The notes beneath the pieces were generated by a model that had not been told where the DNA came from, did no database searches, and was given only the letters and a program-made list of their open reading frames with translations. A stretch of DNA of 64,000 bases, taken from a virus. The stretch is taken from positions 58,314 through 122,313 of the IMG/VR virus record IMGVR_UViG_3300035126_000842. One strand, given 5' to 3'. The position numbers and the translations under genes are program-made. Below are positions 14,870 to 42,287 of this stretch, in pieces. Position 1 is the first letter of the stretch. Every line of letters begins with the position of its first letter.

Positions 14870-17260
14870 CTATTGTCTACTACCAGGTAAACCTGCTTGT
14901 TGTCTCCAACCAGCACCTCCTCGTCTAGGTACATAACCAAGTTGATTACGACTTGCTATACGTGATTCAATATCACGTATGCTTAATTCTTTTTCATACC
15001 TCTCTAATTCATCAGGACTCATGTTTGCAGTGTTTTTTCTTGTAAAACCTGTTTCTGTTGAAGCTTCTTCATTACCAGGTTGTCCTGTAAACCGAATATT
15101 ATTTGCTCTAGTACTAAACATAAAACTTGGATCTTGAGCGTTTAACAAGTTTACATTACCCTGATTAGTATAAGCTTGAGAAAGTTTATTAGTAAATACA
15201 TTTCTCTTTTGAGCTCTAGTATTAGCTTTTTGTTGTAGGTAAGTAGCTAAATCTACATCATATTGTCTATCAGCCATTTGACGCATTCTGTCATAGTTAC
15301 CTAACATTTGAGCATTAAACCCTTGTGTTTGATTTAAAGTACCTATGTTTCTTTGATTAACACCACTTATTATATTAGCGGTATCACCTGCTGCTAAACC
15401 TTGCATGTAAGATGCTGCAGATGAAGGGTTTCTACCAAATGCTTTTATAGCGTCTGTAGCTCTAGCAGCACCTTCTTGTCTATTAGCAATAGCGCGAGTA
15501 GGGTCTTCTAATACAGGATTAATAGTTCTAGGACCAGCAACTCTTTGATATGTAGGACCTACATCTGTATTATCAAATAAAGAAAAGGCAGAACCATATA
15601 AGTCTACCACATCTGATTTAAAGAAAGGTTGACTAGGATATTGAGAGTAATCGTAGGTTTGCTTTTCTTGCTCTTTTCCAGCAACTGTCGTTGGTACATA
15701 CTCACCTTTAGCATCACCACCACCTTCTCCTCCTGGAAATACTCTTTCTTTTTGTATATTTACACAATTCCCATTTATTTCCATGTGACCTGGAGGACAA
15801 TTAGAAGAAGCAGGAGTTGCATTTGGTGTAGGAGTAGATTGAGGGGCAGGTTGTGCTGTTTTAAGAACTTCTGTTTTTCTTATAGTAGGCATTTTACCGT
15901 ATTTATGTAAATCTTTAGCTGCGGCTTCCATTGCTACTGGATCATTTGCAATACCTGCTTCTTTAGCTAATCTATGAAAAGTACTAAATTTTCCTTGATT
16001 TTGTAGAATATCAGCTGGTGTAAAATTAGTTTTTTGGTCAGTAGGTACTTTATAACCAGGAGTATCTTTGTATGCATAATTAGAATCTTCAGCATAGGGA
16101 TTATAACCTTCTGAAAATTTATCTACAGGTCTTGCATCTACAGGTGGTTTAAAAGGTTTTCCTACTTGAGCTTTATGTAAATATCCACCAATTTTCTTTT
16201 TATTTAATGAATCTAAACCTGTTAATTTATTTATAGCATCAAAATAATATTGATTAGTATTTTGATTTGAACCTTGAAAGTTTAATACTGGTTTTTTATC
16301 AGGCATGTTTTGACCTGTATTATAATAAAAAGATTCAGTAAGAGGATTACCTCCTCTATCAATATTTTTCATATATACATATGAGGTATCATTAGGTAAA
16401 CCATTATTATATGTGTTTATAATTCTAGCACCTTGTTCAAAAAAAGCTCCGTCATTGTCTACCGTAGGAAAAGAATTGCGTAGTTCAGTGTTTGACCCGT
16501 GATGTATATAGCTATTATCTGCTATTGGTGATGTATATATAGGTTGTTCAGTACTAGTTTTTTTAGCAGTTTTTATTTGCTTTCCTGTTTGTGCTTTAGA
16601 AAGGTACCCACCATACCTGTACTGTTCTTCATTTATATCATCTTGGTCTGTTGCAAGCTGACTAGTATTTATACCCTTCTTCTCTAAGTAGGGAAAAGCA
16701 AATTTAGGTACATTACCACCCTTTAAATAAACTTCTTGAATAATAGCTAGTTTAGATAGTTTATCACGGTTATTATTAATCATTAATTCTGCTGTCTCTT
16801 TTTCAAGAGTGTCAGTATCCTTATCTAAAAGTTTAGCATTGTAATCGTTTAGCTGGTATCTTTTTGAAAGAGCAGCAGGTGTATAAGAACCTTTAGATTT
16901 ACCAAAGATTTTTAACAAATCTGGATTATTAATTCTCATTTTCTTTGTGTCTGAGAAAATAAAAGACTCAGGTAAATTTAAAGGTACACCCGGACCATCT
17001 GCGTGACGAGGACCTTGTATATTATAGAATTCATCAAGACCGTCTTTTTGGAAATCACCAACTACAGTTTCTCCACCTTCTGCTTCTACATTAGCTTCTT
17101 CTCTAGGTACCGAAGTAAGAGTTTTTCTTACAGGAGAAGAAGTCTTATCTGATAGCAAACTAGCAGTATAACCATTTTTATTTTTGGTACTCCACCCTTC
17201 TGATATGGGTCTACCATAACCAGCTTCAGGAAGTTTAGTAATTTTTACACGTCTCATCAT
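14870..17260 (-). CDS. 796 aa putative virion cargo protein with GG-Y-L-x-K-A-Q motifs
   Basis: N-terminal VEAEGGETV..GPRH..G.GV segment of a type I recognise from crAss-like cargo proteins; two GGYLxKAQxG motifs; Q/A/N-rich helical C-terminus. Confidence 0.55.
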   Translation of the reverse strand: MMRRVKITKLPEAGYGRPISEGWSTKNKNGYTASLLSDKTSSPVRKTLTSVPREEANVEAEGGETVVGDFQKDGLDEFYNIQGPRHADGPGVPLNLPESFIFSDTKKMRINNPDLLKIFGKSKGSYTPAALSKRYQLNDYNAKLLDKDTDTLEKETAELMINNNRDKLSKLAIIQEVYLKGGNVPKFAFPYLEKKGINTSQLATDQDDINEEQYRYGGYLSKAQTGKQIKTAKKTSTEQPIYTSPIADNSYIHHGSNTELRNSFPTVDNDGAFFEQGARIINTYNNGLPNDTSYVYMKNIDRGGNPLTESFYYNTGQNMPDKKPVLNFQGSNQNTNQYYFDAINKLTGLDSLNKKKIGGYLHKAQVGKPFKPPVDARPVDKFSEGYNPYAEDSNYAYKDTPGYKVPTDQKTNFTPADILQNQGKFSTFHRLAKEAGIANDPVAMEAAAKDLHKYGKMPTIRKTEVLKTAQPAPQSTPTPNATPASSNCPPGHMEINGNCVNIQKERVFPGGEGGGDAKGEYVPTTVAGKEQEKQTYDYSQYPSQPFFKSDVVDLYGSAFSLFDNTDVGPTYQRVAGPRTINPVLEDPTRAIANRQEGAARATDAIKAFGRNPSSAASYMQGLAAGDTANIISGVNQRNIGTLNQTQGFNAQMLGNYDRMRQMADRQYDVDLATYLQQKANTRAQKRNVFTNKLSQAYTNQGNVNLLNAQDPSFMFSTRANNIRFTGQPGNEEASTETGFTRKNTANMSPDELERYEKELSIRDIESRIASRNQLGYVPRRGGAGWRQQAGLPGSRQ

Positions 17261-17272
17261 AATCTAAAAATA

Positions 17273-17280
17273 CAAAATTA
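17273..17280 (-). promoter_or_regulatory. Bacteroidota-type -7 promoter box (TAATTTTG)
   Basis: Matches TAnnTTTG; about 13 nt upstream of the 796 aa start. Confidence 0.45.
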
Positions 17281-20022
17281 ATCTATAAACTCCAATTCTC
17301 CACCTGCTGCTAAAAACTCATAAATTTCATCGTCGGTCATATCTACCTCACCACCAAACTGCATACTCCCTGTTCCTACTGAAAACTTATCAAAGTAACC
17401 TAAACGATTCGGTTGTAAGAATCCTTGATTAGTAGTCCAATCTCCTCTGCTCATACTTTGACCAGGTTCTTTATAGTTTCTTTGAAACTGACTGTAGTCT
17501 GGAGTTTTTTCTAATAAGTTATTAAGAGCTTTAGTACCTAATAATATGTTATCAGCATTAGCTCCTTTCCACATTCTGCTAGCAAAAGCTCCTGCTTTTT
17601 GACCAAAAGAAGGTTTATCTGCAGCACCAGAATCTAATTTAATACCTTGCTTGCTTTGAGCAGAAGAACTTCCACTACCATCACCTCCTCCGTACATACT
17701 ACCGTCACCTTGTGGTGCTGCGTAAGATTGATTATCTAACCAATTTCTATATTGACCACTAAAAGCAGTAGATTCTAAAGGTTTATTTATACCAAATATA
17801 TCTTCATCTAACTGAGAATTAGCTGTCGCATACATACCTGAACCTATATTAGTTCTTGGTGCTTTACGACCATAAGTAATCATGTCTGATTCAACAGGAT
17901 TGTTAGGATCAAAAGGGTCTGCAAATTGTGCTTTAGGAAGGTAACCTCCATATTTCTTTTTGGTTGATTTACTATTTTTCATTTGATAAGCTTTTAATGC
18001 TTTTTGAGTTTCAGCTCCTAATACTCTATCAAAACTACCGTCTTCTTTAATTGAATTAGGTAATTTATAACCTATTTTAGATAAAGCATTTTGTAATGCA
18101 AATACAATTTTTTCAGAAGCTTCTGTTCCAATTAAATCAGGTGAAGATATTATACCTATTAGATTGTTAGCTTGATTTAAAACTTGCTCTGGTTTATTGA
18201 AAGAAATAGGTCTTAACCTAACACCTAAATCGTAATAGTCGTCATAAGTTCTACCTGTTACATCTATTGTTGGGTATTTTTCTTTTATTTTAAAAACAGC
18301 TCCTACAGGTGTTTGTATTCCTTTACTTCTAGGTATTCCAAAAGCATCACACACATTATCCGCACAATTATTTGTAAATAAATTCCAATCAGAAGGTTTA
18401 AATTCAGTTTCACCAGCAAGCCACCCAAATTCTCCCATAGGTAATGACATGGCTTTATTGTAAATCTTATTCTGGTCTGCTCCATAAACATAATATGAAC
18501 GCTCTCCTTCTCTTTTTGCTCTCCCTATACCAAATGGGTAATTACCAGCTTTACTATAATCTATAGATGCCGATTCAGGATCGTTTGTAACAGAAACAGA
18601 AACATGACCAGGTATATATTTACCAAACATAGGATATAAATTAACCTGTGACGGATGATTCTGCTCAATAGAATGTACAGGTTTTCCTTTTACACCATAT
18701 GCACCAACTTCTTGTCTTGGAGTTCCTGCATATTTAGTATTATATCTTTTACCTTTATACATAAATTCTTGTTCTCCTGCTTTTTTCGCAGCAGAATAAG
18801 CTGTATTAAAATCACCTTTATCAGAATAATCTGCTACATCCCAATTATAAGGATTTGCCCATGAGGGTATAAAGTTTCCTATAGATTGAGCTTTAGGTAA
18901 ATAACCTCCGTATTTTTTTTTATTTTTCTTTTGCCAATTTTCAAATGCAATTTTAGTATCTGTTCCCCAAATTCCATCATATGTTCCATCTTTTTTAAGA
19001 GAAGAGGACATATCATAACCTTGTTCACTTAAAGCTTTTTGTAAAATTCTTATATTATGTTGATTTTCATACGGACTAAAAGCTTTATTTTTGTATTTTT
19101 CTAAAACTTGTTGTCTTGCATATGCAAAATCTGCAGAATTTTCAAAATCATAATCTCTAAATAAAATTCTTTGTTTTAAAGGAAATCCTTGTGATTCATG
19201 TACATATTCAATGCTTTTAGGATCCTTGTACATTTTCTCATCATATCCAACCCAGTCATTTAATGTTTTATCATAAAAAACATTATTTCTTTTAAGATCC
19301 TCGTTTAGTTTATTTAGAAACCCTTCTGACCCCCAATCTTTTGACTGTCTAGAATGTAATAATTCTTCTATATAATCATCTATAAGATTTGCAGTATCTA
19401 TTTTTGTTACGTTAGGATCTTGATTAAGACCAAAAATATACATTTTATTATCTTCATTAGAATAATTAGCTCTTCCATAATCTCCACTTCCATGATTTTG
19501 CGATTCAGAAGATTCTATTGAAACAAGTGGATTACCATATCTATAATGTAAATTTAAAACATCTTTATATCTTGTTTCAGGATCACCGTATGTTTTTCTA
19601 TGCCCTTTTATATTACCAGGAGTTATATTTTTTTCTTGATTTATAAAATAATTTTTTAAATAGTTTTTGAAAAAATCAGGTGATTTTTGTTCAGCAATTT
19701 CCCAAGGTTCTAGTTTTTTACCACTATCTTTTACAGCAAAACGTTTACCGTTCCACATAAACTCATTTGCTCCTTCTTTTTTTGCACCAGCATATGCTTT
19801 ATTAAAATCTTTCTCATGACTATAATCAGATACTCCCCAGTTTAATGGGTTAGTCATCATTGCGCGACGATTCTGTATTTGTTTATATTTAGCATCGTCT
19901 ATTCCATAAAAAGCTCTACCTGCAGCTACTAATGCATTATTAAATTGTTGCAATAAAGAAACATCCTCTTCTTTTTTAGATCCTGCTATTTGATACTTAC
20001 GCAAATAACCTTTTCTTTTCAT
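17278..20022 (-). CDS. 914 aa modular virion protein: two cassettes, each with a catalytic-type domain plus a peptidoglycan-binding-like domain
   Basis: Duplicated NPxNW..DY..KxDFNxAY..AKK.G..EFM..GKR leader. EELLH zincin-like motif in cassette 1; H...NNCAD papain-like motif in cassette 2. Two LQ.AL...GY......DG..G..T..A segments typical of PG_binding_1. Confidence 0.65.
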   Translation of the reverse strand: MKRKGYLRKYQIAGSKKEEDVSLLQQFNNALVAAGRAFYGIDDAKYKQIQNRRAMMTNPLNWGVSDYSHEKDFNKAYAGAKKEGANEFMWNGKRFAVKDSGKKLEPWEIAEQKSPDFFKNYLKNYFINQEKNITPGNIKGHRKTYGDPETRYKDVLNLHYRYGNPLVSIESSESQNHGSGDYGRANYSNEDNKMYIFGLNQDPNVTKIDTANLIDDYIEELLHSRQSKDWGSEGFLNKLNEDLKRNNVFYDKTLNDWVGYDEKMYKDPKSIEYVHESQGFPLKQRILFRDYDFENSADFAYARQQVLEKYKNKAFSPYENQHNIRILQKALSEQGYDMSSSLKKDGTYDGIWGTDTKIAFENWQKKNKKKYGGYLPKAQSIGNFIPSWANPYNWDVADYSDKGDFNTAYSAAKKAGEQEFMYKGKRYNTKYAGTPRQEVGAYGVKGKPVHSIEQNHPSQVNLYPMFGKYIPGHVSVSVTNDPESASIDYSKAGNYPFGIGRAKREGERSYYVYGADQNKIYNKAMSLPMGEFGWLAGETEFKPSDWNLFTNNCADNVCDAFGIPRSKGIQTPVGAVFKIKEKYPTIDVTGRTYDDYYDLGVRLRPISFNKPEQVLNQANNLIGIISSPDLIGTEASEKIVFALQNALSKIGYKLPNSIKEDGSFDRVLGAETQKALKAYQMKNSKSTKKKYGGYLPKAQFADPFDPNNPVESDMITYGRKAPRTNIGSGMYATANSQLDEDIFGINKPLESTAFSGQYRNWLDNQSYAAPQGDGSMYGGGDGSGSSSAQSKQGIKLDSGAADKPSFGQKAGAFASRMWKGANADNILLGTKALNNLLEKTPDYSQFQRNYKEPGQSMSRGDWTTNQGFLQPNRLGYFDKFSVGTGSMQFGGEVDMTDDEIYEFLAAGGELEFID

Positions 20023-20023
20023 A

Positions 20024-20752
20024 TTAGTACAATTCCATTAAGTCTTGTTCATCTAACTGACCACCAAACTCTTTAGCAAAGTTTTCTTCGCTTTTATTTT
20101 TTTCCTCATATGTGAGAACAAAATTTTTACAAAATTTATATATCTCATCATTCGTAAAATCGCTTTTCATTTGGTTTATAGCCATACATACTAATTGTGT
20201 ATTATTTTCTGTATATCCTTCGTTTGGATTTATTCTATCCACACTTAAATTAGTTGGAGTTCTTCCTGCATTTAATTCAAAAGTCATATCTAAATTTGAT
20301 AAGGCACATTTTCCTTTTTGTTTTATATATAAATCATGAAGAAATGCTTTACTTATAGAAAATTCTATATTAGATTTCAAAGATCTATCTACAGCACCTC
20401 TGTATCTACTAGTTAAAATTTTATCTAATTTTTTATCTTCAGAAAAAGAAGCATTTAATTTATGTTGTCGTATTTTATTACAATTATTGCATATATACCT
20501 TCTATAATTTCTTGTAGCATTTAAAGTGTTATTTGGTGTAAAAACAACTTCATCTTTGTAGTCAGCACATTTATGACACAATAACTTGCCTTCAAACCAC
20601 TCAGGTTTTAATTTAATAGAATCTTCGCATGTTCTACAAACCATGTGAAAAACCTCTTTGCTATGTATTCTAGAAGAACGATAGTTTTTTCTGTTTTCTG
20701 GCAAATTGACAGAACACTGATGACATATTTTATATGTAGTTGTTCCTTTCAT
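20024..20752 (-). CDS. HNH (His-Me finger) homing-type endonuclease
   Basis: Four CxxC pairs, then KQKGKCALS..NLSVDRINPNEGYTENNTQLVCMAINQMK, the SxDRI..GY..N..xC..N motif of phage HNH-type endonucleases. Sits between two GG-motif genes. Confidence 0.75.
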   Translation of the reverse strand: MKGTTTYKICHQCSVNLPENRKNYRSSRIHSKEVFHMVCRTCEDSIKLKPEWFEGKLLCHKCADYKDEVVFTPNNTLNATRNYRRYICNNCNKIRQHKLNASFSEDKKLDKILTSRYRGAVDRSLKSNIEFSISKAFLHDLYIKQKGKCALSNLDMTFELNAGRTPTNLSVDRINPNEGYTENNTQLVCMAINQMKSDFTNDEIYKFCKNFVLTYEEKNKSEENFAKEFGGQLDEQDLMELY

Positions 20753-20757
20753 AATAC

Positions 20758-21570
20758 TTAATCTTCTACGTATATATCTCCACCAAATTCATTTTTCCAT
20801 TTACTTGCTTGCCTAGCAAAGTTTGCTTTACGAACCATCGCGGTAGAATACTTATCTTTATTTCTAAGAATATGACGCGCTGCTTCTTGAACACTCATAC
20901 CCATTTTAGTAGCTTGAGCTTTGAATGTACCTTTTTTACGAGGGTCAATATGAATACCACCTTGCTTCATTTGATTCATACCACCCATTTCAAATAATGC
21001 TACAGGGTGCTGATAACCATTAGGTTCCATCATAGGGTGATTCATATAACCACCATAGTACCAAGAACCACCTTGCGCCATCATTGCTTGTTGTTCAGGT
21101 GGCATCATCTGCTGTTGCATACCTTGTTGAGGCATACCCTGTTGTTGTTGCATAGCTTCTTGAACAACCTGCGCCATTTGTTGTATAGCTTGTTGCTGTT
21201 GTTCAGGACTTAATTGCTGAAGTCTCTGCATAATTTCTTGGGGATCTACACCTTGTATCTCAGCAAACATTTGAATAATCTGCATTATTTGATCTTGCTC
21301 AGTACTCCCACCTTCTTGATATCTACTACCACCCATTCTCATCTGTTGCCCTTGACCTTGCTGTACTACTTGCATCATCTGCTGAATAGCTTGCTGTTGT
21401 TCTTTTGAAGATAATCCTTGCAGTTGTTGAATTATTTCTTCAGGATCAACACCTTGCATGTCTGCGAACATTTGAATTACTTGCATAATTTGGTCTTGTT
21501 CTGCAGAACCACCTTCTTGCATTTTTACATTACCACCGCACTTATAACAGGGTTTTGACGACTTTTTCAT
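20758..21570 (-). CDS. 270 aa Gln/Met-rich protein with nine xxxGG motifs, an internal duplication and a basic C-terminal module
   Basis: Two copies of QEGGSxEQDQIMQxIQMFAxxQGVDPxEI. C-terminal GGIHIDPRKKGTF..KANFARQASKWK module of a kind I recognise from crAss-like phages. Confidence 0.7.
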   Translation of the reverse strand: MKKSSKPCYKCGGNVKMQEGGSAEQDQIMQVIQMFADMQGVDPEEIIQQLQGLSSKEQQQAIQQMMQVVQQGQGQQMRMGGSRYQEGGSTEQDQIMQIIQMFAEIQGVDPQEIMQRLQQLSPEQQQQAIQQMAQVVQEAMQQQQGMPQQGMQQQMMPPEQQAMMAQGGSWYYGGYMNHPMMEPNGYQHPVALFEMGGMNQMKQGGIHIDPRKKGTFKAQATKMGMSVQEAARHILRNKDKYSTAMVRKANFARQASKWKNEFGGDIYVED

Positions 21571-21599
21571 ATAACTATAGTTTATCTAATTTACGAAAT

Positions 21600-24500
21600 T
21601 TATTTAGAAAATGGAACTTCATCTACATAATTTACACCAAGATACAAATATTCTTCACCTGGTAGCATTAAATTTGCTTTTCCATTATCTCCAATTGCTA
21701 AAACAGGATAGTTAATTCCTTCCATTGTAATTCTGTTAGAAGGAATTCTAGTTGTTTTACCAGGAAATTTTCTTTGTCCTTCAGGGTGTTCAATAGGAGT
21801 TTTACCTCCGTCTTGCCAAGTACCAAATCTTTTATGCCAGTACAAAGGACTAAACTGATCTTTAGCTTTAGCAGAATTTTTACCACCCATTCTGTCCCAG
21901 AATCTTTCTCTTCTTTCTTCTGAACCATGCTGGGTGTAATCTTTCATCCCTTTATAACCACCGTGCACTATTTTATATTTGTTGCCTTTTTTAGCAAGTA
22001 CCATCCATTTTTTACCAGGACGATTAGATTTGCGTTTTGCACCCACTTTAGTAAAACCTTGGTTTTTGTATCTATCAGGAATACCACCTTCTCTAAGAAC
22101 TTTAATATCTTCTATTTGATTGATGTCTTCTTCTTCGTAATCACCTAGTTCTGATAATCTATCAATCGCTTCTTCTACTAAAGAATCTACTACCTCTTCT
22201 GAATAACCAGTATCTACTAAAGAACCTGCTAACATATCAGGGTCTTCCCCATCAGCTATCATGGAAGCTATCTGAGCTAATAGATTATCAGTTTCTTTAT
22301 CGTATATATTACCGCCCATTTGTTCTTTAGAAATAGGATTATTTTGAGTATCTCTAGTCGGTTCAAACTCCTCCATTCTATCTCCTTCTACATAAGCTCT
22401 ACCTTTATTATAACCTATTGTGTTTTCAGGGTCGCTATCTAATCTTGTATCACCAGAAGCTATGTATATTTCATTACCTGAAGAGTTAAGTGCTGTATAT
22501 GGTTTACCAGCTAATCTTCTTTTTTCTTGTTTTTTATCCATTCCATAATAAAATTTCTGAGGAGGGTTTCTTGCAGGTTTTTGTATAGGAATATCTAAAG
22601 GTACAAATTCTCTTTCTGGTTTATCATAAGATATTTGAGTTATATTTCTTAATGGCATTTTTTTAAGCTTTGGCATTAATGGTTTTTGAAAAATAGGTTT
22701 ATAATAAGTGGTACTTTCAGTTGTTGTTGGATTTCCTACAGGTTGCCCGTATATTGTACCATATGAATTACTTCCAATTGGTACCATAGTTCTTCCTTGT
22801 TCGATAATTTTTTCTTCCCAAGATGTTGGTTTTATTCCATCTACTGAAAAGTTAGGATCTTTTTTTGTTTTCCAATACTCGTTTAATTTAACATTTGGTC
22901 TAGCATACATGTTATTTAAATAATATTTTCGATTAAGTCTATCCTTATAATCTTTACTTTCCATAATATCCTCTAATACTTTTACTTTTCCTTTATAAAA
23001 CTCTTCAGATAAGCTTTCAGGAACTCTTCCTTTAATTCTTAAAGAGTCTTTAGAAGTTTTTCTTTCTGTTTCTAAACCATACTTTTTAGCAAATTCTTTA
23101 ACAAATAAATCTTCATTATCAAATGCTTGTTGAGTGTATTTCTTAACTGCTTCATCGTGTTGAGTATATTCTTCAAATTCATTAGGGAATGTATTTTTGT
23201 CTATAATTAATTCATATTCTGGTTGTTCTTCATTATTATATTGATTATATAATTTTAGTTTTTTGTGATATTCTACCCAAGGGTCTATCTCTGATGAAGA
23301 CCCACCATCTCGTTTTTTTGCTCTATTTTTGCGTTGTTTTGCTAAAATAGATTCAATACCGTTTGTTACAATTAAAGGCGCTTCATCAGAATATACTTGA
23401 TCTAAATATTCTTCTACTAACTTAGCAAACATTTTGTCATCGAAGTCTTTGTAATCAAAACCAATGTAATTGTCTCCTACGTCATAACCTCTTTCTGTTC
23501 CATACCCTCTGTATTTCTTTCTAAAAAAATTCTTTACTTGTTCAATGTTTTCCTCTGTAAGATATTCTCTGGGTATTTCATCTAAATCTCTAAAGAATAT
23601 ATTTTTTATATGCTCGTTTCTTTTAGTTTCGTCTTTTATTCTATAAGGGTAATTAGAACCTTTGTAATACATGTCTATTAGATTCTCACCACCAGCTTGT
23701 TTTTTAGGTACATACTGTAATCTACCATCTTCTCTTTGTGTAAGTAATAGATCTTTTGTATAGGGACTAAGTTGACTTGCTAGCGCTTCATAAACAACAG
23801 AAGGGTGGTTTTTACTCTTTAACACTATACCATCTTTACCTACGCTAAATCCATGATACAAACCATCATCTTGTAACGGAAAAAACTCTGTGTCTTTTAC
23901 TTCTTTAAATGAATTAGGTTTTCCTGCAGCTTCCCACATGCCATACAAATCATAGTATGAGTAGTCTCCATATTTAAAGTTATCATCTCTTAAATTATTA
24001 GGAAGCGTTTTATTAAAAGCTGTAAACTTAGTCCAGTCTTCAGGATTCTCTCCTCCTTCTCGATATTTAGGTCCTTTCTCGTTTTTAAAATGAGTTTCGT
24101 AAGACCTATCTATACCGACAGGGTTTTTCTTACCCATATAAGATACTCCTTCTTGTAGTGCGTTTATAGCTAAGTCACCCCAAAAAGGTGCTGGTGATTT
24201 TAATCCTTCTAAAGCAATGTTAACTGTTCTTGCATAATCGCTAGGATTATTTTCTAGTATTTGAGTTGTTGCATTATAAGCGGGACCTACTACATTAACT
24301 TGGTCAGCTAAAGTTTGTTTAAGTATATTTCCGGCAGGTGTATTAAGAAGTTTAGTTAACCAGTTTTCAGTTTCTCCTCCTCCTTGATACATATACTCTT
24401 TATCTTGATATGGTACTCCTGTTGTTGAAGTAGGAAAAAAACCACCCATTTCTTTCTTCTCATTTCTAATCTTTCTTTCCTGTTTTAACATTTCAGCGGT

Positions 24501-27293
24501 AGGTTTTTTACCAGAACCTGCATTATCACGAATGTTGTCCCAAAGTCCTCTACGAGAATAACTACCATCTTTTCTTCTTATCATACCACCATTTTTTTGT
24601 TTTTGCTTAACAGCAGAGTTTACATTATGGCGAAGATAATCACCCATAGGGTAACTCTGTTTAGTATAGTTACTAGGATTAAGTATATTTAGTTTAACAG
24701 CATTATTTGAATGATTGAAATACTGTACAGAATTGTTACGTAAAATGTTATTTTCTCTTTGAGCAATTAAATTAGTAACTAATTCAGAAAACTCTTTAGG
24801 ACTATATTCTAGTACACCATGTGACATAAAAGGCTTACCAAAAAATTTTTCTAGTTTTACGTTACCTGGAACCAAATCCCATATATCATTATATTCCATT
24901 ACATTGTTGTAAAATCGCTGATTGTAACCACCCATTATATTAGTAGTGGTAAAATCACTTTCTTTAGTTTGAAGACTGTTATCTAAAGCATCTATTTTTT
25001 TCTTTTCTTCTTTCAATAATTTTAAATCTTGCACTGATGCATATTTAGGATTATAATAAAACCAAGGAGCTAAATCAGCAATGTTAGGTAAGTCATTTAA
25101 CAATCTATTTTCATTATTAATCGAAAATATTTCAAGATTTTTTAATTGTTCGGGAGTATAAGCAGGATGATTAATAGGAGCAGTTTCAGCAATTCTAAAC
25201 GTATTATATTTTTGAGGAAGTCCACTATACAATCGCCATGCATCATATCTATTAGTTGATACCAATGGATTTTTAGTATCTATTGACATTATAACTTTGC
25301 TTATGTCATCTGTTAAAATTTTTGAATTTGTTTTACCTAAAATTATTTTTTGGGGTATTTGAAGAATTCTTTTTGTAGCATTATCATAACTATAAGGTAC
25401 AACATACTCAGTCAATAATTCGGATACTATAGGCAAATAACCTTTTCTTTGTTTACTTGTTATGCCTAATTTTTCCATTTGTTCTTTTGCAATTTCAAAC
25501 TGAGTTAATCCTTTTTGCAAACCCTCTTTTTCTATTTGTAATAATGCGTTATCTATTTTATTAAAATAGGATGACGCTTGTTTTGCACCTTTAAAACCTG
25601 CACCTAAAAAAGGTACTGCTTCAAGAGCATTCATTCCAGCACTTAAATAATTACCTTCTGAAATATCACTAGGTATGTTAGCTAATCCTTCTATAGTAAG
25701 AAGAGGATTAACCGCGTCACCAATAGGGTCTATAGATATTAAACCCCCACCTTGAGGTTCTCTCCAACCTTGATTTTGAGATTGCTCATACTGTTGTTGA
25801 ACTATACGTTGTCGTTCTTTTTCTGTTTGATATGTATTATCAAAATCTTCTTCTATCTCTACTTTAACGGGTAGTGATTTTTGAGTAGTAACACCAGCAG
25901 CAGTTGCGGTAGATTTTGCTACACTTCTATTAGAACCTGCATAACCAGCAGGTCCTTTCCAGGAACCTTTATCTTGATATTTTGGTAATGAGCCACCATT
26001 TTTGTATTTACCTCTCCAACCTATTTTGTAATCTTGTAATAAATCATCTATATATTTTTTAAACTCCAAATTTTGTTCGGGAGTTAAATTTTTATAATCC
26101 ATAAAAGGAAAGCTTTCGTCTACATCAAACATTTTAGAACCTCTTTTACCCATAACGTTTGTACTTCCTTTATACATAGCCATAGGTCTTTCGTAAGAAA
26201 GAACAGGATTAAAATCAAAACGTCGAAATCCTTTAGATAAATCATCAAAATTATTTTCTGGATGAAAATATTTATTAAACCAATTTTGATAATTACCTGT
26301 AGAATAATCTCTAGGTGATGTCATTCTTATTTGGTAGTTTCCATAATAATTAGGAGTAGAAGATAAATATAAACCTCCTAAATATCTATTGTCTGGTAAT
26401 CCTGATGTATAACCATATTGTTCCATAGGAACATGAGAAGCTTGATATTTTGCAATGGATAGAGGATCGTTAAAATCAACTCCTGCATTTTTCATGTTTT
26501 CAAATTCAGAAATTTCATTATAATAATGAGGTCTAGACATATCAAACGAAATCCCTGTATTGTCTTGAATACCTTTACCATCTTTAGGTACACTTCCTTT
26601 AACACCTCTAAATCTAGTTGCTTCTCTGTTCAAAGCAAACTGTGTTAGCTTATTTGTTTTGTCTGTACTTCTAGCAGCATAATTAACATCACCTAAATTA
26701 AAATCTTTTCCTATTAAGCCTTCTTTTTGTAAACCTTTAATAAATTGTCTTCTTTTTAAAAATCCTTTAGCATCTTCTAATTTTGTAGGATCTATTTTTA
26801 TAGAATTAGAAGTAGTACTGCTAAAATCAAATAGTTCTTTAGCATCAACATTACTATTAGTTATGTGTGGGAATCTAGTTCTTTTTAATCCTCTAAATGC
26901 TGAACCTGCAAAAGGAAGTGCTTCTAATGCATTCATTCCTGCTCCAAAATAATCACCTTCTAAAATCTGACCTGGTATAGAAGCAATAGATTCAGCAACT
27001 AATAAAGGATTTACAGCATCTCCTATAGGATCTATAGATATCATAGCTCCTGAAGCAGAAGGATCAGTCCAAGGATTCATTCTTCTTTGCAAGTATGCTA
27101 TTTCATCAGCTTTTTTTTGCTCAGGAGTTCTACTATCAATATATTGCATTCCTTCTGTTTGAGGTACAGTGTTTACATAAACACCTGCAGCTTCTACCTT
27201 TGTTACGGCAGGTTTATTTACATTGGACTTACCAACATAACCACTAGGACCTATCCATTGCGTACCTTTTTGAGCTTTAAGTAATTTTTTCAT
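21600..27293 (-). CDS. 1897 aa mosaic protein of GG-delimited modules; putative virion cargo polyprotein
   Basis: Eleven xxxGG boundary motifs, a duplicated ISIDPIGDAVNPLL..AGMNALEAxPFxG segment, and several small basic modules. Confidence 0.65.
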   Translation of the reverse strand: MKKLLKAQKGTQWIGPSGYVGKSNVNKPAVTKVEAAGVYVNTVPQTEGMQYIDSRTPEQKKADEIAYLQRRMNPWTDPSASGAMISIDPIGDAVNPLLVAESIASIPGQILEGDYFGAGMNALEALPFAGSAFRGLKRTRFPHITNSNVDAKELFDFSSTTSNSIKIDPTKLEDAKGFLKRRQFIKGLQKEGLIGKDFNLGDVNYAARSTDKTNKLTQFALNREATRFRGVKGSVPKDGKGIQDNTGISFDMSRPHYYNEISEFENMKNAGVDFNDPLSIAKYQASHVPMEQYGYTSGLPDNRYLGGLYLSSTPNYYGNYQIRMTSPRDYSTGNYQNWFNKYFHPENNFDDLSKGFRRFDFNPVLSYERPMAMYKGSTNVMGKRGSKMFDVDESFPFMDYKNLTPEQNLEFKKYIDDLLQDYKIGWRGKYKNGGSLPKYQDKGSWKGPAGYAGSNRSVAKSTATAAGVTTQKSLPVKVEIEEDFDNTYQTEKERQRIVQQQYEQSQNQGWREPQGGGLISIDPIGDAVNPLLTIEGLANIPSDISEGNYLSAGMNALEAVPFLGAGFKGAKQASSYFNKIDNALLQIEKEGLQKGLTQFEIAKEQMEKLGITSKQRKGYLPIVSELLTEYVVPYSYDNATKRILQIPQKIILGKTNSKILTDDISKVIMSIDTKNPLVSTNRYDAWRLYSGLPQKYNTFRIAETAPINHPAYTPEQLKNLEIFSINNENRLLNDLPNIADLAPWFYYNPKYASVQDLKLLKEEKKKIDALDNSLQTKESDFTTTNIMGGYNQRFYNNVMEYNDIWDLVPGNVKLEKFFGKPFMSHGVLEYSPKEFSELVTNLIAQRENNILRNNSVQYFNHSNNAVKLNILNPSNYTKQSYPMGDYLRHNVNSAVKQKQKNGGMIRRKDGSYSRRGLWDNIRDNAGSGKKPTAEMLKQERKIRNEKKEMGGFFPTSTTGVPYQDKEYMYQGGGETENWLTKLLNTPAGNILKQTLADQVNVVGPAYNATTQILENNPSDYARTVNIALEGLKSPAPFWGDLAINALQEGVSYMGKKNPVGIDRSYETHFKNEKGPKYREGGENPEDWTKFTAFNKTLPNNLRDDNFKYGDYSYYDLYGMWEAAGKPNSFKEVKDTEFFPLQDDGLYHGFSVGKDGIVLKSKNHPSVVYEALASQLSPYTKDLLLTQREDGRLQYVPKKQAGGENLIDMYYKGSNYPYRIKDETKRNEHIKNIFFRDLDEIPREYLTEENIEQVKNFFRKKYRGYGTERGYDVGDNYIGFDYKDFDDKMFAKLVEEYLDQVYSDEAPLIVTNGIESILAKQRKNRAKKRDGGSSSEIDPWVEYHKKLKLYNQYNNEEQPEYELIIDKNTFPNEFEEYTQHDEAVKKYTQQAFDNEDLFVKEFAKKYGLETERKTSKDSLRIKGRVPESLSEEFYKGKVKVLEDIMESKDYKDRLNRKYYLNNMYARPNVKLNEYWKTKKDPNFSVDGIKPTSWEEKIIEQGRTMVPIGSNSYGTIYGQPVGNPTTTESTTYYKPIFQKPLMPKLKKMPLRNITQISYDKPEREFVPLDIPIQKPARNPPQKFYYGMDKKQEKRRLAGKPYTALNSSGNEIYIASGDTRLDSDPENTIGYNKGRAYVEGDRMEEFEPTRDTQNNPISKEQMGGNIYDKETDNLLAQIASMIADGEDPDMLAGSLVDTGYSEEVVDSLVEEAIDRLSELGDYEEEDINQIEDIKVLREGGIPDRYKNQGFTKVGAKRKSNRPGKKWMVLAKKGNKYKIVHGGYKGMKDYTQHGSEERRERFWDRMGGKNSAKAKDQFSPLYWHKRFGTWQDGGKTPIEHPEGQRKFPGKTTRIPSNRITMEGINYPVLAIGDNGKANLMLPGEEYLYLGVNYVDEVPFSK

Positions 27294-30200: not shown

Positions 30201-32317
30201 AAAGTAGTACCACCATTTAATAATTCAGGACCTTTAGTTTTAGGTAAAGTCATAGTAGATATAGTAGGTTCACTAGATGCTTTTTTGACACCTAAAACTA
30301 AACCTGCTATCATAGATAAAAAGAAACTTAAATCTGATGGTAGTTTATGTCTGGGATGATTTTCAACAGGACTAAATATAGCTCTATCTAATTCACCTCT
30401 TACAATACCATATTTTTTTGCTTCATATGGAGCTAGATACGGTTCTTTAAATTGTGTATCAGGAGAGTGGAAACTATAATGTTCTGTTCTAGTAAATGTA
30501 GCACGATCTGTTTTCCCTTCTGCATCACAGTTGCCTTTTTTATAAGCTGGATTAGGAGGTTGATTAGCAGGTTGTAATAATTTTTCTGTAGGACCTACTT
30601 GATTATAAGGAAAGTTCTGTATAGCATCGTTACCTTGAACCAAAAGATTATTAAATATACCTTTTGCTACAATAGTTTTATTTCCTTCACGCGATCCTCT
30701 TAATATTTCATAACCTACAATACCTGGTACATCTATTAGAACAGAAGGATTAGTAGGGTTGGGCATTTGAGGTTTTGCAATATTATAAAACCTAACACCC
30801 ATTATTCTAATTTGTCTTCCGTCATTACTATGATGCCACGAGTTTCCAGTTCGTCTAGATGGAAATTTATGATGTCTGATATAATCATTACATAAACTAC
30901 CGTATCTGACAGAGTCGTTTGGATATCGTTCAGAAGATTGCCAATACGACATTTCACCTTCTTCAATTATTTGACCTTCATATTTAGAAGCGGTATCTAT
31001 ATGTTGATAAGAAGTGTTAGTAGTAACAATAGATGTATCTTCACCTTGCCAATTAAAAGCAAAATCAAAGTTATTACCTGTACCTGGAGGAATAATACCT
31101 AAATCTGTTTGAACAGGAGCTCTACCTGGAATATGATATGACTCACTTCTTTCTCCTGTATCATATAAAAATCTAATAAAAAATGGATAGACTTCATCTG
31201 ACATGTAACCAGTTACAGCTCCCCCGTTTTTGTAAAAATTAGATTCTACTTCCCATATTACATATTTAGATCTAATATTATTAGCTGTAGGTTGATAGTT
31301 AAAACTATATCTAGTTCTAGGACCTACTCTAAGCATATAATCACCTACCGTATAAGTAGCATCTGATTTTTCATAAACAGGTCTGCGAACAGGAAGATTA
31401 GAAAGTGGTACCGTAAGCAAAGAATCAGGTATAATACTTATTCCTATTGTAGCTTCTTGACTAGGAGCAGCACCGTTGCTAGTAGCATAAAAACCAAAAC
31501 TTTTAGCTATTGTATTTCCTGCAATAGTGTAAACAATGACTAATTCAAACTCACTGAAGTACTCAGTATCAAGATTAGTTACACTTACTTCTATAGCACC
31601 ACCTATTCCTACATGATTAAATATAGGTTGAGGATTAGTAATAGCATAATAATCACCAAATCTTTGTTGATTAATAGTGTATGCTACGCATGCTTGATAA
31701 GAACCGTTTATTAACTCACCTCCATATGTAGCTTTTCTAATATCTACTTTAGGTATTTTGATTTTTGGGGTAAGTCTTATTTGATCACAATCTAATTGTA
31801 AGGGTAGAATGTTAGTGCATATACTACAACCTGTAGGACTAGGAGTACATATTTGTTTGTATGGAATACTAGTAGGAGATAGATATCTAGTAGGATTTCT
31901 ACCATCGTCCCAATAAAAAAATCTATGACAATCAAATGAATCTTTAACACCACCTGACCTAATAGGATTAGAAGAAGAAAAATTTAAACAAGGATCGTTT
32001 ACTATTTTAGTATAAGTGCAAGTAGATTCCGTATATAGTCCTATTTCATGGTTATTAGAATCATCAGTAGAAAAGATAATCCACTCGTCGTCATTAAAAA
32101 ATAAATAACCTATTACAGGAAAAGGAGCACTTGTACAAAATAAAGTAGAAGATTCATTAGATATAGTAGCCATATCACCCTGTAATGTATTTACAGCAGC
32201 ATTTCTAGCATGTGACCAAGCACCTTCTGGTAAGAAAGAATCATTAAGGTCTTTCATCATACCTTTTACAAAAGTATTGCTCTCACCTTGTTTTAAATTT
32301 TGAAAGTTCTCTGCCAT
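27290..32317 (-). CDS. Tail stabilization protein (crAss-like, P22 gp10-like/muzzle)
   Basis: 1675 aa beta-rich protein starting NTFVKGMMKDLNDSFLPEGAWSHARNA, located just downstream of ring/tubular-type genes as in crAss-like tail modules. Confidence 0.75.
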   Translation of the reverse strand: MAENFQNLKQGESNTFVKGMMKDLNDSFLPEGAWSHARNAAVNTLQGDMATISNESSTLFCTSAPFPVIGYLFFNDDEWIIFSTDDSNNHEIGLYTESTCTYTKIVNDPCLNFSSSNPIRSGGVKDSFDCHRFFYWDDGRNPTRYLSPTSIPYKQICTPSPTGCSICTNILPLQLDCDQIRLTPKIKIPKVDIRKATYGGELINGSYQACVAYTINQQRFGDYYAITNPQPIFNHVGIGGAIEVSVTNLDTEYFSEFELVIVYTIAGNTIAKSFGFYATSNGAAPSQEATIGISIIPDSLLTVPLSNLPVRRPVYEKSDATYTVGDYMLRVGPRTRYSFNYQPTANNIRSKYVIWEVESNFYKNGGAVTGYMSDEVYPFFIRFLYDTGERSESYHIPGRAPVQTDLGIIPPGTGNNFDFAFNWQGEDTSIVTTNTSYQHIDTASKYEGQIIEEGEMSYWQSSERYPNDSVRYGSLCNDYIRHHKFPSRRTGNSWHHSNDGRQIRIMGVRFYNIAKPQMPNPTNPSVLIDVPGIVGYEILRGSREGNKTIVAKGIFNNLLVQGNDAIQNFPYNQVGPTEKLLQPANQPPNPAYKKGNCDAEGKTDRATFTRTEHYSFHSPDTQFKEPYLAPYEAKKYGIVRGELDRAIFSPVENHPRHKLPSDLSFFLSMIAGLVLGVKKASSEPTISTMTLPKTKGPELLNGGTTFPTGPLTAAQATQLTTYFTDILNNDIQNTIAPEIFRILANFTASINTSSATYVQPTIVPPPVALTSSGTLRNFINRTLGLATTTNAFELPTTTVTFNDSRYEGMPFPLKAFYQLPILLNSWSEATDEFLELLLKLVPYRQFAYQQRSHCLYKDYDNLFISRRKVFNSGYIGSGVFNAGNLRIDNTLRNKFVFVETQSLSFDHTGLLSPSDDTSRFTLGDANTPYGKDHINGLPVTGKNSATIYGALVNRIVNQYGQLDTINQIPISSHYIDSPNTNNTWVSSTGPLFGGDIYIGRHTEKNPFFFFRNWLQNRPDGYEIDYRKYNATVFRPRFWMNTESYDLNDFFKGLMSSLGGLASSVFTSNPAGPTIPIQPDQEGVVPSDFSNLDQDGQNCTFNPLNFRKLRLGVKNAFMYLFYSGVRDFFVESEINVDLRDWLDEDRYRHYHPYNYTDLDKLFNPDVITEREQYRYDFSLSHSKIFFDKISWGNIQPRTYDPITYLDCFTYDPSMVVYSLPDNGSVSDPWRVYLPDNFKILSGGIVNIKNINKNGSMIVFNDRSPVMIQGSDSLQTDLGTKVTLGDGGLFEQALQNISSSDRSFMEGACIDTFGVINCPAGVFLMSNSLKKIYRVAGQGALEDITAKGLKWWFNNYMGYKILEDFPNFPDTNNLAVGIGSFISYDHESSILYFTKRDYVINPQYKTLWDYFYTGRGKFTLVSKQLPGRKLRNISLNSPYFIDVSWTVSYDPKQNFWVSFHDWHPNYTLSSRTKFTAINGKDFWKHNVRFDSFCNFYGTDYPFEVEVPINTKQVSIIDSFEYYLDAVVYTDSPDVSYTQLDGNFDQAVVSNKEQCSGLLNLVPYPRQNPYLAASYPTTAGSSINILVSKEENKYRFNQFYDIINNRGENTGITSPIWLVGKDGYKKQLNPAAINYNKPEFQQKRLRNYFQKVFLRKTISGAVNFVFKIFNTKSTISPR

Positions 32318-33543
32318 TAGTTAATTATATCGTAAAATCTTCTATACATAATATCACGCGCTTGTTTCCAAACTCTTTTCATTTCAGAGAAATTAGGAGT
32401 CCTTACAATACTTAACGCATTAATTCTTGATATTCTAAGTTTTGCTACAATAAGTTGAATCTTTCCTTCTAATCCTGTTTCACCATTCATTAAAAGGTTC
32501 TCAAGAATTCTTTCTTTAAGAGCATATTCGTAGTATTCTGTAATCATAGGATGGTCTAAAACTAGTAAGTTACCATTATCATCTTGCATAAGCGCTTGAT
32601 AGTTAATGTAAATAGTACCGTTTTCAAAACCAGCGTTTATAAAACCATCTTTAATTTCAGCATGAGCTCCTGACCTAATTCTAGTATTAGGACAATCGCA
32701 ATCTATTTGTCTACCCGGTTTAAGATATATAGGCATAAACTCGGTGTAAGTTCTAGTAGTGTATTTTACCTTTTGAATTAACTGATAATAATCACCACAT
32801 TTATTCATACACGCATCTTGTGGCATACAAAAAGGAGAATCATTAGGTTCTTTTTCTACAGGAGTTACATTTTGTATAGGGTCTCCACAATTAGGTGCTG
32901 TATTATTGTATTGATTATGTCTTTGTTTACATGCAGCACAATCCGAATGTTTTTGTAAAACTGGATAAGTGTGCCAATTTCCTGAAAAAAATTGAGGTGG
33001 TGCAGCACTAGGAATTGATTGAAAACCACAACATCCTAATTCTATACACATACCTCTATTAGTGTCATATTGAATATAAACAGTATCATTTGGAGTTAAT
33101 GGCACATAACTAATTAAACCAAATCCATAATCTCTTCCTAGACTTGTACCAAAACAATCTGTAGCACATAAAGAAGCTGAATCAGGACCATAGTCTATAT
33201 AATAATAATAAATTTTAGGTTGTTTACATTCAGGCGGAGTAAGAACAACATCTTCAATATGAGTACCAGAAGGTACCATTTCTTCTACAGTATATTTACC
33301 ACATAAGTATGCGTAGTTTAATATTTGAAAATCAGAAGGTAATCTACCCTTGTAATTACAAATATCAATAACTGCTTCTTTTTCTCTTGTTATTTGAATT
33401 CCTAAATCATAATTAACCCTACCTGCAACTCTAATAAGTTGTTGAGGGTCAATCATATTTTCAAGGTTGTATTGTTGAAAATCAACATTTACATCCGCCA
33501 TTAACTCATCAAAAGTTTTATACTGTAGTTCTACTGTTTTCAT
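32317..33543 (-). CDS. Putative tail ring/tubular protein with Cys-rich insertion
   Basis: Synteny directly upstream of the stabilization gene; about 16 Cys, mostly in a central insert. Confidence 0.5.
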   Translation of the reverse strand: MKTVELQYKTFDELMADVNVDFQQYNLENMIDPQQLIRVAGRVNYDLGIQITREKEAVIDICNYKGRLPSDFQILNYAYLCGKYTVEEMVPSGTHIEDVVLTPPECKQPKIYYYYIDYGPDSASLCATDCFGTSLGRDYGFGLISYVPLTPNDTVYIQYDTNRGMCIELGCCGFQSIPSAAPPQFFSGNWHTYPVLQKHSDCAACKQRHNQYNNTAPNCGDPIQNVTPVEKEPNDSPFCMPQDACMNKCGDYYQLIQKVKYTTRTYTEFMPIYLKPGRQIDCDCPNTRIRSGAHAEIKDGFINAGFENGTIYINYQALMQDDNGNLLVLDHPMITEYYEYALKERILENLLMNGETGLEGKIQLIVAKLRISRINALSIVRTPNFSEMKRVWKQARDIMYRRFYDIIN

Positions 33544-34199
33544 TGTCTTGTATTATCTTGTTTATCAATCATAGGATCTGCAGGTAACTGTTCCATAACA
33601 GCAAGATCTTGCTTAAATCCGTTTTCAATTTCTGAATACAAATAGGGTGGTACACGGGAAATAGTTTGTTGCATATTTCTACAACCATCTTGGACACCTA
33701 AATCTATTTCAAACAAAGCTTCAATAAGTATTGCATCCCAATCGATATTAGGAAAATAAAGATACCCATCTATATACCAAGCATATTTGTTTGTATTAAA
33801 CTTAAAGCTTTTGCTTTTAGTCATTTCTACATAAATAGAAGGTGCTGTAAAAGTAAAAGAAGTACCTCTATCTATTGATGTAACATTTCTAAACAAAGGA
33901 CCGTATGCACCATCTATTACTTTTGGTAGTTTATCTTTAGTTCTTCTTATTGTACAACCAGATTGTATTCCAACACAACATGCTTCTACTTTATCAACTT
34001 CTATAAGTTCTACACAAGGAAGTACCTGAAACACCGTTTGGTATTTCATAATACGGTTTAGATTATCCTGTCTTCTTATATACAGATATGCGTATTTTAG
34101 AAAAATAGAATACAAATCTCTGTCAGTTAAAAAACTATCAGGACTTATTGCTTTTGCTATTTTTCTAAGACGTGCTACTATTACTCCAATTGTATCCAT
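33540..34199 (-). CDS. Putative tail tubular/ring protein
   Basis: 219 aa; position in the crAss-like tail block; YAWYIDGYLYFPN segment. Confidence 0.5.
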   Translation of the reverse strand: MDTIGVIVARLRKIAKAISPDSFLTDRDLYSIFLKYAYLYIRRQDNLNRIMKYQTVFQVLPCVELIEVDKVEACCVGIQSGCTIRRTKDKLPKVIDGAYGPLFRNVTSIDRGTSFTFTAPSIYVEMTKSKSFKFNTNKYAWYIDGYLYFPNIDWDAILIEALFEIDLGVQDGCRNMQQTISRVPPYLYSEIENGFKQDLAVMEQLPADPMIDKQDNTRQ

Positions 34200-41522: not shown

Positions 41523-41840
41523 CTAGAGCAAATTATTGTTATTCTGGTCATCATACATTGCTCTAATAATAAGCAAGTAATTTACAATGTCAATAATTTT
41601 TTCATCTACCTGGTCCATATCAGGAAGTTTATTATCTGCAATAGTATCTTTTAACCACTGCAAATGTTTGGTCATATATTCCCACGCAATACCCTGTGGT
41701 GTTTTTTGCATAGAAATACCAGTACGAAAATTCCGAAATACATCAGAATTGTGGGCGTACTCTTGATTTTTAACTACGAGTCTACTCCTGACTATCTCTA
41801 GAGCTGTCTCTACACTTTTGGAAAATTCTTGATTGTTCAT
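41523..41840 (-). CDS. All-alpha nucleotide pyrophosphohydrolase-like protein (DUF1599/MazG-like)
   Basis: KNQEYA..DVFRNF..K..EKIIDIVNYL pattern. Confidence 0.5.
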   Translation of the reverse strand: MNNQEFSKSVETALEIVRSRLVVKNQEYAHNSDVFRNFRTGISMQKTPQGIAWEYMTKHLQWLKDTIADNKLPDMDQVDEKIIDIVNYLLIIRAMYDDQNNNNLL

Positions 41841-41844
41841 GTCA

Positions 41845-41852
41845 CAAATTTA
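41845..41852 (-). promoter_or_regulatory. Bacteroidota-type -7 promoter box (TAAATTTG)
   Basis: TAnnTTTG 5 nt upstream of the 105 aa gene. Confidence 0.45.
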
Positions 41853-42287
41853 ATCAATAATTGAGACACGCATATTCAATAACTCAAGTTTGTGACAATC
41901 TTTTACGTGTTTAATATAAAGATTCCAAGATTTAGCCCATTCTTTAATATAGAAATTATTATAATGTTCTAAATTTAATTTTTGTAAAAGATAGTACCCG
42001 TGCTCCCAAGCTTTGTATTCACCTTCTACTATGATAACACGATTGTGGTTTTCAGTTTTAGAAAGACCTCCAAAAATACTATCGCGGTGAATAACATGTC
42101 CTATTTCATGTAACAGACCTACAATAAGGCTAGCTTTACTTTTTACACACTTTGGTAAAGCAATAACTTTACTATCAGGATAATAAAAGTACGATTTACC
42201 TTCTCTCTTTAACTCAACAGAAAGTTCTTTACAAACAGCTTCTAAAATTTTGTAATCTTTTGTAAACTGCTTATCTGTTACTTTCAT
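41850..42287 (-). CDS. Zincin-like metallopeptidase
   Basis: LLHEIGH followed by EGEYKAW, i.e. HExxH plus a downstream Glu ligand. Confidence 0.65.
   Translation of the reverse strand: MKVTDKQFTKDYKILEAVCKELSVELKREGKSYFYYPDSKVIALPKCVKSKASLIVGLLHEIGHVIHRDSIFGGLSKTENHNRVIIVEGEYKAWEHGYYLLQKLNLEHYNNFYIKEWAKSWNLYIKHVKDCHKLELLNMRVSIID

Follow-up and report, generated by a model that had tools for sequence, protein, structure and literature searches.

What is the role of short peptides ending in a glycine pair that recur between unrelated domains in neighbouring genes of a tailed phage? The question is raised by positions 14,870 to 27,293 of a 64,000-nucleotide stretch of viral DNA (IMG/VR record IMGVR_UViG_3300035126_000842, positions 58,314 to 122,313), hereafter the window, which is the right half of a complete phage record of 122,313 bp. 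In this region, five adjacent minus-strand genes encode an HNH endonuclease and four proteins which we call cargo proteins. A first-pass annotation of the sequence had listed short Gly-Gly (GG) motifs in all five and had proposed two explanations: the proteins are polyproteins matured by cutting at GG, or the motifs act as capsid-loading signals. Every motif on that list is present in the gene to which it was assigned. We find that the motif is real and widespread and that it marks the borders of cargo modules, and there are strong indications that something reads it specifically. The genes and the extended motif copies at their junctions are as follows (aa, amino acids).

21600..27293, minus strand: gene of the 1897 aa cargo polyprotein ("cargo A"), in which small modules, DUF5754 among them, form a mosaic with 11-12 border motifs and an N-terminal LLKAQKG half-motif
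25965..26006, minus strand: extended junction YKNGG-SLPKYQDKG, residues 430-443 of the 1897 aa protein, upstream of the second copy of an N-terminal segment
20758..21570, minus strand: gene of the 270 aa cargo protein, which has three small helical modules and carries nine GG motifs
20024..20752, minus strand: gene of the 242 aa HNH endonuclease, with PHROG endonuclease matches, apparently inserted in the 3' end of the 270 aa gene
17278..20022, minus strand: gene of the 914 aa cargo protein ("cargo B"), with two enzyme-plus-PG_binding_1 cassettes, each closed by KKKYGG-YLPKAQ
18880..18918, minus strand: junction KKKYGG-YLPKAQSIG, residues 369-381 of the 914 aa protein
17926..17961, minus strand: junction KKKYGG-YLPKAQ, residues 688-699 of the 914 aa protein
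14870..17260, minus strand: gene of the 796 aa cargo protein, with conserved modules at ~45-215 and ~530-796 and a variable middle holding two GG-YL.KAQ.G junctions
16583..16621, minus strand: junction YRYGG-YLSKAQTG, residues 214-226 of the 796 aa protein
16160..16201, minus strand: junction KKKIGG-YLHKAQVG, residues 354-367 of the 796 aa protein

The motif consists of an aromatic residue or Met, one of Q/K/R/E, any residue, and Gly-Gly, and it frequently takes the doubled form GG-[W/Y]-L-x-K-[Y/A]-Q-x-G(G). The idea that GG should be enriched in these proteins holds for the motif in its context but not for the glycine pair as such: measured against composition-preserving shuffles, plain GG is in excess in a single protein, that of 270 aa (9 vs 2.7, p = 0.0005), and is not above shuffles in the other four of the five. 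With 1.0 expected, the four cargo proteins contain the pattern [MYWF][QKRE]xGG 12 times; it is absent from four giant proteins (9290 residues), and is found 4 times against 1.8 expected in the other 128 open reading frames (ORFs). The extended form, which the first-pass annotation had seen in three genes, is indeed confined to them, with five copies of GG[YS]L.K[AY]Q in the 796, 914 and 1897 aa proteins and none elsewhere in the proteome of 38.8k residues. Its GG-less halves do open the 914 aa (YLRKYQIAG) and 1897 aa proteins.

Since this pattern was set post hoc from the same proteins, it was tested on independent data, namely 80 related loci taken from 410 related viral contigs. The cargo A/B proteins of these relatives contain it 371 times, against 39 in shuffles (9.5x), and the 796-like proteins 103 times against 15 (7x). 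The giant proteins encoded downstream have 4 copies where 19.5 are expected (0.2x, a 5-fold depletion); after removal of duplicates the expectation is 16.6, and the lowest of 100 shuffles gave 8. Control patterns (the reverse, AA and SS analogues) lie at ~0.4-2.4x in the same loci, and in the doubled form a GG-to-GG spacing of 6-10 residues is 3x enriched. The loci are kin to one another, and the enrichment and depletion figures therefore overstate the independence of the observations. The motif is particular to cargo proteins across a large phage clade.

The motifs coincide with the places where the proteins are rearranged. The ends of BLAST alignments of homologues to the 1897 aa protein cluster at GG433, 902, 950, 1080, 1201, 1736 and 1829; 7 of the 17 clusters of such ends lie at most 7 residues from a motif GG, where 1.6 are expected (P = 0.0002). 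Upstream of six unrelated small modules, a GG is found within 6 residues in 84-100% of the distinct sequence contexts. At orthologous sites the GG is retained in 46/46, 103/104 and 29/34 cases, and its flanks vary within the pattern. In the alignment of the 270 aa family the GG are conserved, and from some members precisely one module, bounded by two motifs, is missing. Hence, homology breakpoints, module insertions and deletions, and gene starts all coincide with motifs, and the proposal that these proteins are modular cargo with GG motifs between unrelated modules stands. Structure prediction places the motifs accordingly. AlphaFold2 (AF2) folds the 270 aa protein into modules at 23-76, 90-144 and 207-262; each of its nine GG falls in one of four segments, between or beside the modules, that have a predicted local distance difference test score (pLDDT) below 50, and a GG sits 1-3 residues ahead of the first helix of each module. 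The 796 aa protein is modelled with a pLDDT of 96-98 at 45-210 and below 50 in the linker 216-227, which opens at GG217. The expected location in low-pLDDT linkers at module edges is thus borne out in both models.

Copies of the motif are also found at the extremities of proteins. Many homologues open with it (e.g., MKNWLDKFQEGG, MGWLKKYQKGG, MEKRRVRLYKAQEGG and MISYKSGG, or MQDGG in one member of the 270 aa family), and many stop a few residues past the last GG (e.g., ..GGNWLDNIN and ..GGWLSKYK). Within their 25 N-terminal residues, 17% of cargo A/B proteins, 41% of 796-like proteins and 2% of giants have the half-motif [KR][AYFM][QPKRT]x0-2G. In addition, three complete relatives have, between the genes of a 233 aa and a 336 aa head protein, a cluster of 7-9 small genes encoding very basic proteins (60-230 aa, 20-40% K+R):

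G001:65970-68146, G003:110231-112577 and G005:21720-23319 (L083-L101): small basic gene clusters; the equivalent site in the window is 40195/40198

The window phage has no small basic genes at 40195/40198, where the two head genes adjoin. Several of the stand-alone small basic proteins carry N-terminal leaders of 15-25 residues ending in ..[KR][KE]GG, and some of the genes start at the position equivalent to the GG. The same modules are also found fused in polyproteins of other relatives, again directly after GG. These clustered proteins are probably internal head or DNA-associated proteins.

The individual genes illustrate how far this modularity goes. The 1897 aa protein has 118 homologues, each of which shares just 5-20% of its length; among them they contain more than 15 different Pfam domains, including ART-PolyVal, Kinase-PolyVal, SET, YkuD, SLT, M23 and lysozyme. 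Within the window protein itself (25580-27293, minus strand), residues ~84-137 and 517-570 are near-copies (..ISIDPIGDAVNPLL..GMNALEA.PF.G..F.G) followed by different parts; this repeat was read by eye from the translation, and self-BLAST returned nothing. The 270 aa protein starts with KPCYKCGG (21510-21545, minus strand), an instance of an element P-C-[YFH]-[KE]-C-G-G that in many relatives is followed by a second GG 6-8 residues on, and which may be half of a small metal-binding knuckle. The 796 aa protein has 1308 relatives.

The GG motif in the tail of the HNH endonuclease is present, as the first-pass annotation had said, but it is not the endonuclease's own. In relatives of the 270 aa protein, the C-terminus reads NFAKEFGGQLDEQDLMELY. 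The last 19 residues of the HNH protein, EFGG included, are identical to it, and the 270 aa gene of the window carries a substitute ending (..KWKNEFGGDIYVED; insertion region 20024-20800, minus strand). Because this 19-residue tail is the captured C-terminus of the 270 aa family, its GG belongs natively to that family. From the sequences, the HNH gene looks like a homing-type insertion that took over the native end of its target gene.

The 914 aa protein has two junctions (KKKYGGYLPKAQ) that encode the same peptide and differ at synonymous sites. Since they differ only synonymously, the peptide is the conserved part, which points to selection on the protein. The protein ends in an acidic GG tail (17278-17370, minus strand) of the approximate form [ST]-x-[DE]-E-[IL]-x-x-[FY]-[IL]-x-x-G-G-x-[IV]-E-[FY]-[IL]. 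Among the relatives (L001-L080), this tail ends 38 of the 145 cargo A/B proteins and no protein of the other classes, and the N-termini that match the acidic C-terminal tails are strongly basic. The second enzyme core of the 914 aa protein (residues 385-640; 18100-18870, minus strand), with its ..NNCADNVCDAFG.. motif, has as nearest named protein-atlas cluster a group of phage proteins with TseH, a cell-wall hydrolase of the type VI secretion system, and PG_binding_1 (score 0.83, a weak lead). Searches of the PDB and NCBIfam with this core were empty.

The phage itself is a distant crAss-like phage, because its large terminase subunit (TerL) is ~25% identical to Crassvirales terminases, PHROG matches identify a portal, a major capsid protein (MCP) as well as TerL, and two ring proteins match Pfam families above their cut-offs: CrAss_Ring_1 at 32317-33543 (E 1.1e-8, 35.3 bits vs a cut-off of 27) and CrAss_Ring_2 at 33540-34199 (E 3.8e-13, 50 bits vs a cut-off of 27). 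Along the minus strand, the ring proteins are followed by a 1675 aa protein in the muzzle position, by the 1897 aa, 270 aa, HNH, 914 aa and 796 aa genes, and by giants of 961, 2601 and 3741 aa, an order that is kept in the 80 related loci. Neither BLAST nor Pfam links the 1675 aa protein or the giants to the phages crAss001 or phi14:2. Few domains in the region are recognisable: the 914 aa protein matches PG_binding_1 and endolysin-like PHROGs, the 1897 aa protein has DUF5754, and the 242 aa protein is assigned to HNH/endonuclease VII. Megablast and tblastn searches of an annotated phage collection with the region, the 796 aa protein and the DUF5754 end gave zero matches, and a single-sequence scan of viral contigs found no relatives; the 410 related contigs were found by an alignment-based scan. 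Between the MCP gene and an 80 aa head gene (41523-43408, minus strand) lie a 105 aa ORF, a 145 aa HEIGH zincin and a 374 aa calcineurin-like phosphoesterase. This trio is an accessory insertion in the head module, since three complete relatives have no counterpart of it. The structural block of phi14:2 also holds a phosphoesterase.

The genes at 14870-27293 occupy the slot of the crassvirus cargo proteins C1 and C2 (gp45 and gp46 in crAss001; Bayfield et al. 2023, PMC10172136), an assignment made by position only: like these, they come after the tail-barrel rings and the muzzle-position gene and before the giants. crAss001 has one gene of 842 aa where the window phage has a set of four genes, 3877 aa in total, with far more modules. 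The two sets have no homology at the sequence level, as searches of the 796 aa protein against gp45 and gp46 with hidden Markov models (HMM) detected none, and structurally the match is a weak one. An AF2 model covering residues 1-235 in the 796 aa protein retrieves 7qog_M, C1's portal-bound domain, at Foldseek rank 2 (E 0.49); VIA-align places it at rank 1, with a weak Z of 5.5 and a root-mean-square deviation of 3.1 over 94 residues at 19% identity, tied with unrelated helical matches. The pattern [MYWF][QKRE]xGG is absent from crAss001 gp45 and from g069 and g070 of phi14:2. Because the cargo proteins of phi14:2 lack it, the motif is a trait of a clade and not of all Crassvirales.

Gly-Gly pairs are nevertheless numerous in crAss001 gp45, which has 21. 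Pairs of the form A-[FY]-G-G flank both of its segments resolved by cryogenic electron microscopy (214-245 and 425-552), and the second segment opens with AFGG-WLNTQ-GG (AFGGWLNTQGG), a doubled form as in the window phage. The published modelled range of C1, 425-552, takes in two GG pairs (PMC10172136). These two pairs would thus be uncut in the virion, because the range, taken from the paper and not from the coordinates, spans both. In the same structure, pieces of C1 are found on either side of the portal (PMC10172136). We also assigned the published peak lists of crAss001 matrix-assisted laser desorption/ionization (MALDI) spectra by peptide-mass fingerprinting against crAss001 30000-72000. 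Of the 97 peaks of band 3, 47 match gp47 and 50 match gp50; band 4 corresponds to gp49 and gp44, with 46 and 17 of its 65 peaks. These assignments fit the ~270 and ~150 kDa bands of the paper and the predicted intact masses of ~263-277 and 155 kDa, the numbered bands themselves carrying no masses. Hence, the giant virion proteins of crAss001 seem to run near their predicted intact size. By the same approach, gp45 was not identifiable in gel bands 1-9.

If the motif is a cutting site, the clade should hold, or have access to, an enzyme for it. Profiles of C39, C48/Ulp1, Prok-JAB, S78 (PF04586), M23 and NlpC/P60 peptidases gave no match in five genomes of the clade that are 97-100% complete, and did match control genomes; the S77 profile (PF03420) matched neither these five nor any control genome and is hence uninformative. 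The search for clan CE consisted of the C48 profile, with C5, C57 and C63 left out, and a divergent enzyme is possible. In the five proteins of the region, scans detected neither a peptidase family nor an embedded MPTase-PolyVal domain. Pfam scans of 20 core genes revealed replication and structural families only, the 403 aa protein (45023-46234) between portal (46284-49055) and MCP is scaffold-like at best, and a screen of the core proteins of unassigned function for conserved Cys and His was uninformative. Two candidates in the window were discarded. The HEIGH zincin (41850-42287), whose matches to PF18818 (MPTase-PolyVal) and M78 are below the Pfam cut-offs, is rejected as a clade-wide GG protease, being absent from five complete relatives and located in an insertion specific to this genome. 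The second core of the 914 aa protein, at first sight a permuted papain-like fold, has the TseH-like lead mentioned above as its sole one, and is more likely, as far as sequence comparison goes, a cell-wall enzyme than a maturation protease. Of the proposal that these are polyproteins matured at GG, the modular cargo stands and the cleavage stays hypothetical, no clade-conserved protease having been found and the crAss001 C1 range spanning two GG pairs.

Processing does not fit the data better than the second option of the first-pass annotation, a capsid-loading signal. The reading we prefer, to which we give slightly less than an even chance, is that the motif is recognised at module borders and acts as a hinge during cargo loading or threading, the chain remaining uncut. 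The genes at 14870-27293 would encode ejected internal proteins, each a chain of independently folding modules (cell-wall hydrolase, peptidoglycan-binding, DUF5754, small helical or basic), every module bearing the motif at its N-terminal border in a flexible linker. A shared partner in the particle, perhaps the portal, the tail barrel or a scaffold, would recognise the motif peptide, and by this recognition each module, alone or fused, would be loaded and held. The glycine pairs would serve as hinges, and the modules would unfold and thread in turn through the tail. Since each module brings its own copy of the motif, modules could be fused, split, deleted or swapped at their borders without loss of function, which would explain the extreme mosaicism of these proteins. 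The lack of an enzyme, the doubled GG-peptide-GG form and the intact, ordered copy in crAss001 favour such a reading without cutting. Several points weigh against it. The binding partner is hypothetical. The AF2 model of the 270 aa protein is of low confidence overall (mean pLDDT 55.7), and crAss001 is a distant relative with a somewhat different flavour of the motif (A-[FY]-G-G), for which the argument rests on a published residue range. Two invariant glycines with loose flanks would be typical of protease sites such as those of adenain, pS273R, Ulp1 and C39 enzymes, and the depletion of the motif in the co-packaged giants is more naturally explained by avoidance of cutting sites. Finally, leaders ending in ..K-K-G-G before a very basic mature part resemble adenovirus pVII.

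These points lead to the main competitor, in which a large crAss-like clade matures its injected cargo by cutting after Gly-Gly, with a phage or host protease yet to be recognised. We consider this a serious possibility, though less probable than recognition without cutting. The cut could fall in the procapsid, as for T4 leaders and the core precursors of adenovirus and African swine fever virus (ASFV), or after ejection, freeing the effector modules. Proteolysis would account for a nearly invariant GG amid varying flanks, for copies at extreme N-termini (MQDGG.., MKNWLDKFQEGG.., MISYKSGG..) where there is nothing to link, for the leaders of the stand-alone basic proteins, for the short tails past the last GG, for the position just before the first helix of each module, and for the depletion in the co-located giants (4 vs 16.6-19.5 expected), a statistic that, however, counts kindred sequences. 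A host enzyme is conceivable because the Bacteroides thetaiotaomicron control genome carries C39 and C48 peptidases, and processing of phage polyvalent proteins has already been proposed (Iyer et al. 2017, PMC5512222). On the other side stand the empty profile searches, the sub-threshold, genome-specific zincin, core genes that are all replicative or structural where scanned, a modelled C1 segment that takes in two GG pairs, and doubled sites 6-8 residues apart, for which a protease has no obvious use. An improbable explanation is that the motif is a passive linker or evolutionary scar that nothing reads: GG-rich joints tolerate in-frame fusion, splitting and swapping, and the flanks would be inherited from a few ancestral junctions. 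The location in disordered linkers at breakpoints, the origin of both 914 aa junctions in a duplicated cassette, and the failure to find either partner or protease all agree with it. However, one and the same pattern precedes six unrelated modules in many contexts, the reverse, AA and SS patterns are not enriched, the motif is depleted elsewhere, and the duplicated junction keeps its peptide despite synonymous differences; moreover, a pure linker has no reason to occur in N-terminal copies and stand-alone leaders, which link nothing. Chance is far less probable still. Gly-rich and Q/K-rich proteins might yield such pentapeptides, and plain GG is not above shuffles in four of five proteins, but this reading is already refuted by the counts here (12 vs 1.0) and in relatives (371 vs 39), by the breakpoints and by the conservation at orthologous sites. 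The small remainder of probability falls to readings outside these four.

Cargo and polyvalent proteins are already known, and the Gly-Gly border motif is apparently undescribed: we found no description in the literature searched of the motif, of GG-punctuated cargo or of cleavage of crassvirus cargo. Given that crAss-like phages are among the most abundant viruses known, the finding bears on how megadaltons of protein are loaded and ejected. The motif would offer a sequence rule for spotting cargo proteins and their module borders in uncultured phages, and it would explain the free shuffling of their domains. It would also make the question of one threaded chain or many cut pieces, which the crAss001 structure leaves open, directly testable by mass spectrometry.

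Among the closest described proteins are also the polyvalent proteins of phages and conjugative elements, which are, like the cargo of the window, large mosaic multidomain proteins delivered with DNA (Iyer et al. 2017, PMC5512222). The cargo proteins share with them the many unrelated domains per polypeptide and the extreme variation in architecture, as seen in the 118 proteins homologous to that of 1897 aa. For the processing of polyvalent proteins, the enzymes proposed were zincin MPTase, assemblin-like, DD or LonC peptidases; unlike polyvalent proteins, the window cargo proteins have no internal MPTase domain, and we found no mention of glycine or of linkers in that work (PMC5512222).

Viruses of eukaryotes offer a second comparison. 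Adenovirus adenain and ASFV pS273R are clan CE cysteine proteases that process virion core precursors at Gly-Gly-X. As in the window phage and its relatives, their substrates have Gly-Gly at the junctions of virion-internal proteins and leaders ending in ..GG ahead of a very basic part. The hydrophobic residue stands at P5 or P3 in the window motif and at P4 in the sites of adenain and pS273R, and, unlike in those systems, the C48 profile, the one used for clan CE, detected no protease here, the cleavage being putative. If cutting does occur, small modules with effector, cell-wall and DNA-binding roles would be packaged or threaded as one chain and then released separately, a tailed-phage counterpart of adenovirus and ASFV core processing that would imply a new specificity of a phage or host protease. 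Among tailed phages, T4 marks its internal proteins with a short N-terminal capsid-targeting sequence, which the prohead protease gp21 cuts after Glu, and the cargo is then ejected. The window phage differs from T4 in that its element is also internal and repeated, and in that S78 was not found and the S77 search had no positive control. By analogy with T4, where the targeting leader is both a signal and a cleaved peptide, an address-and-hinge role of the Gly-Gly motif and processing at it are not mutually exclusive.

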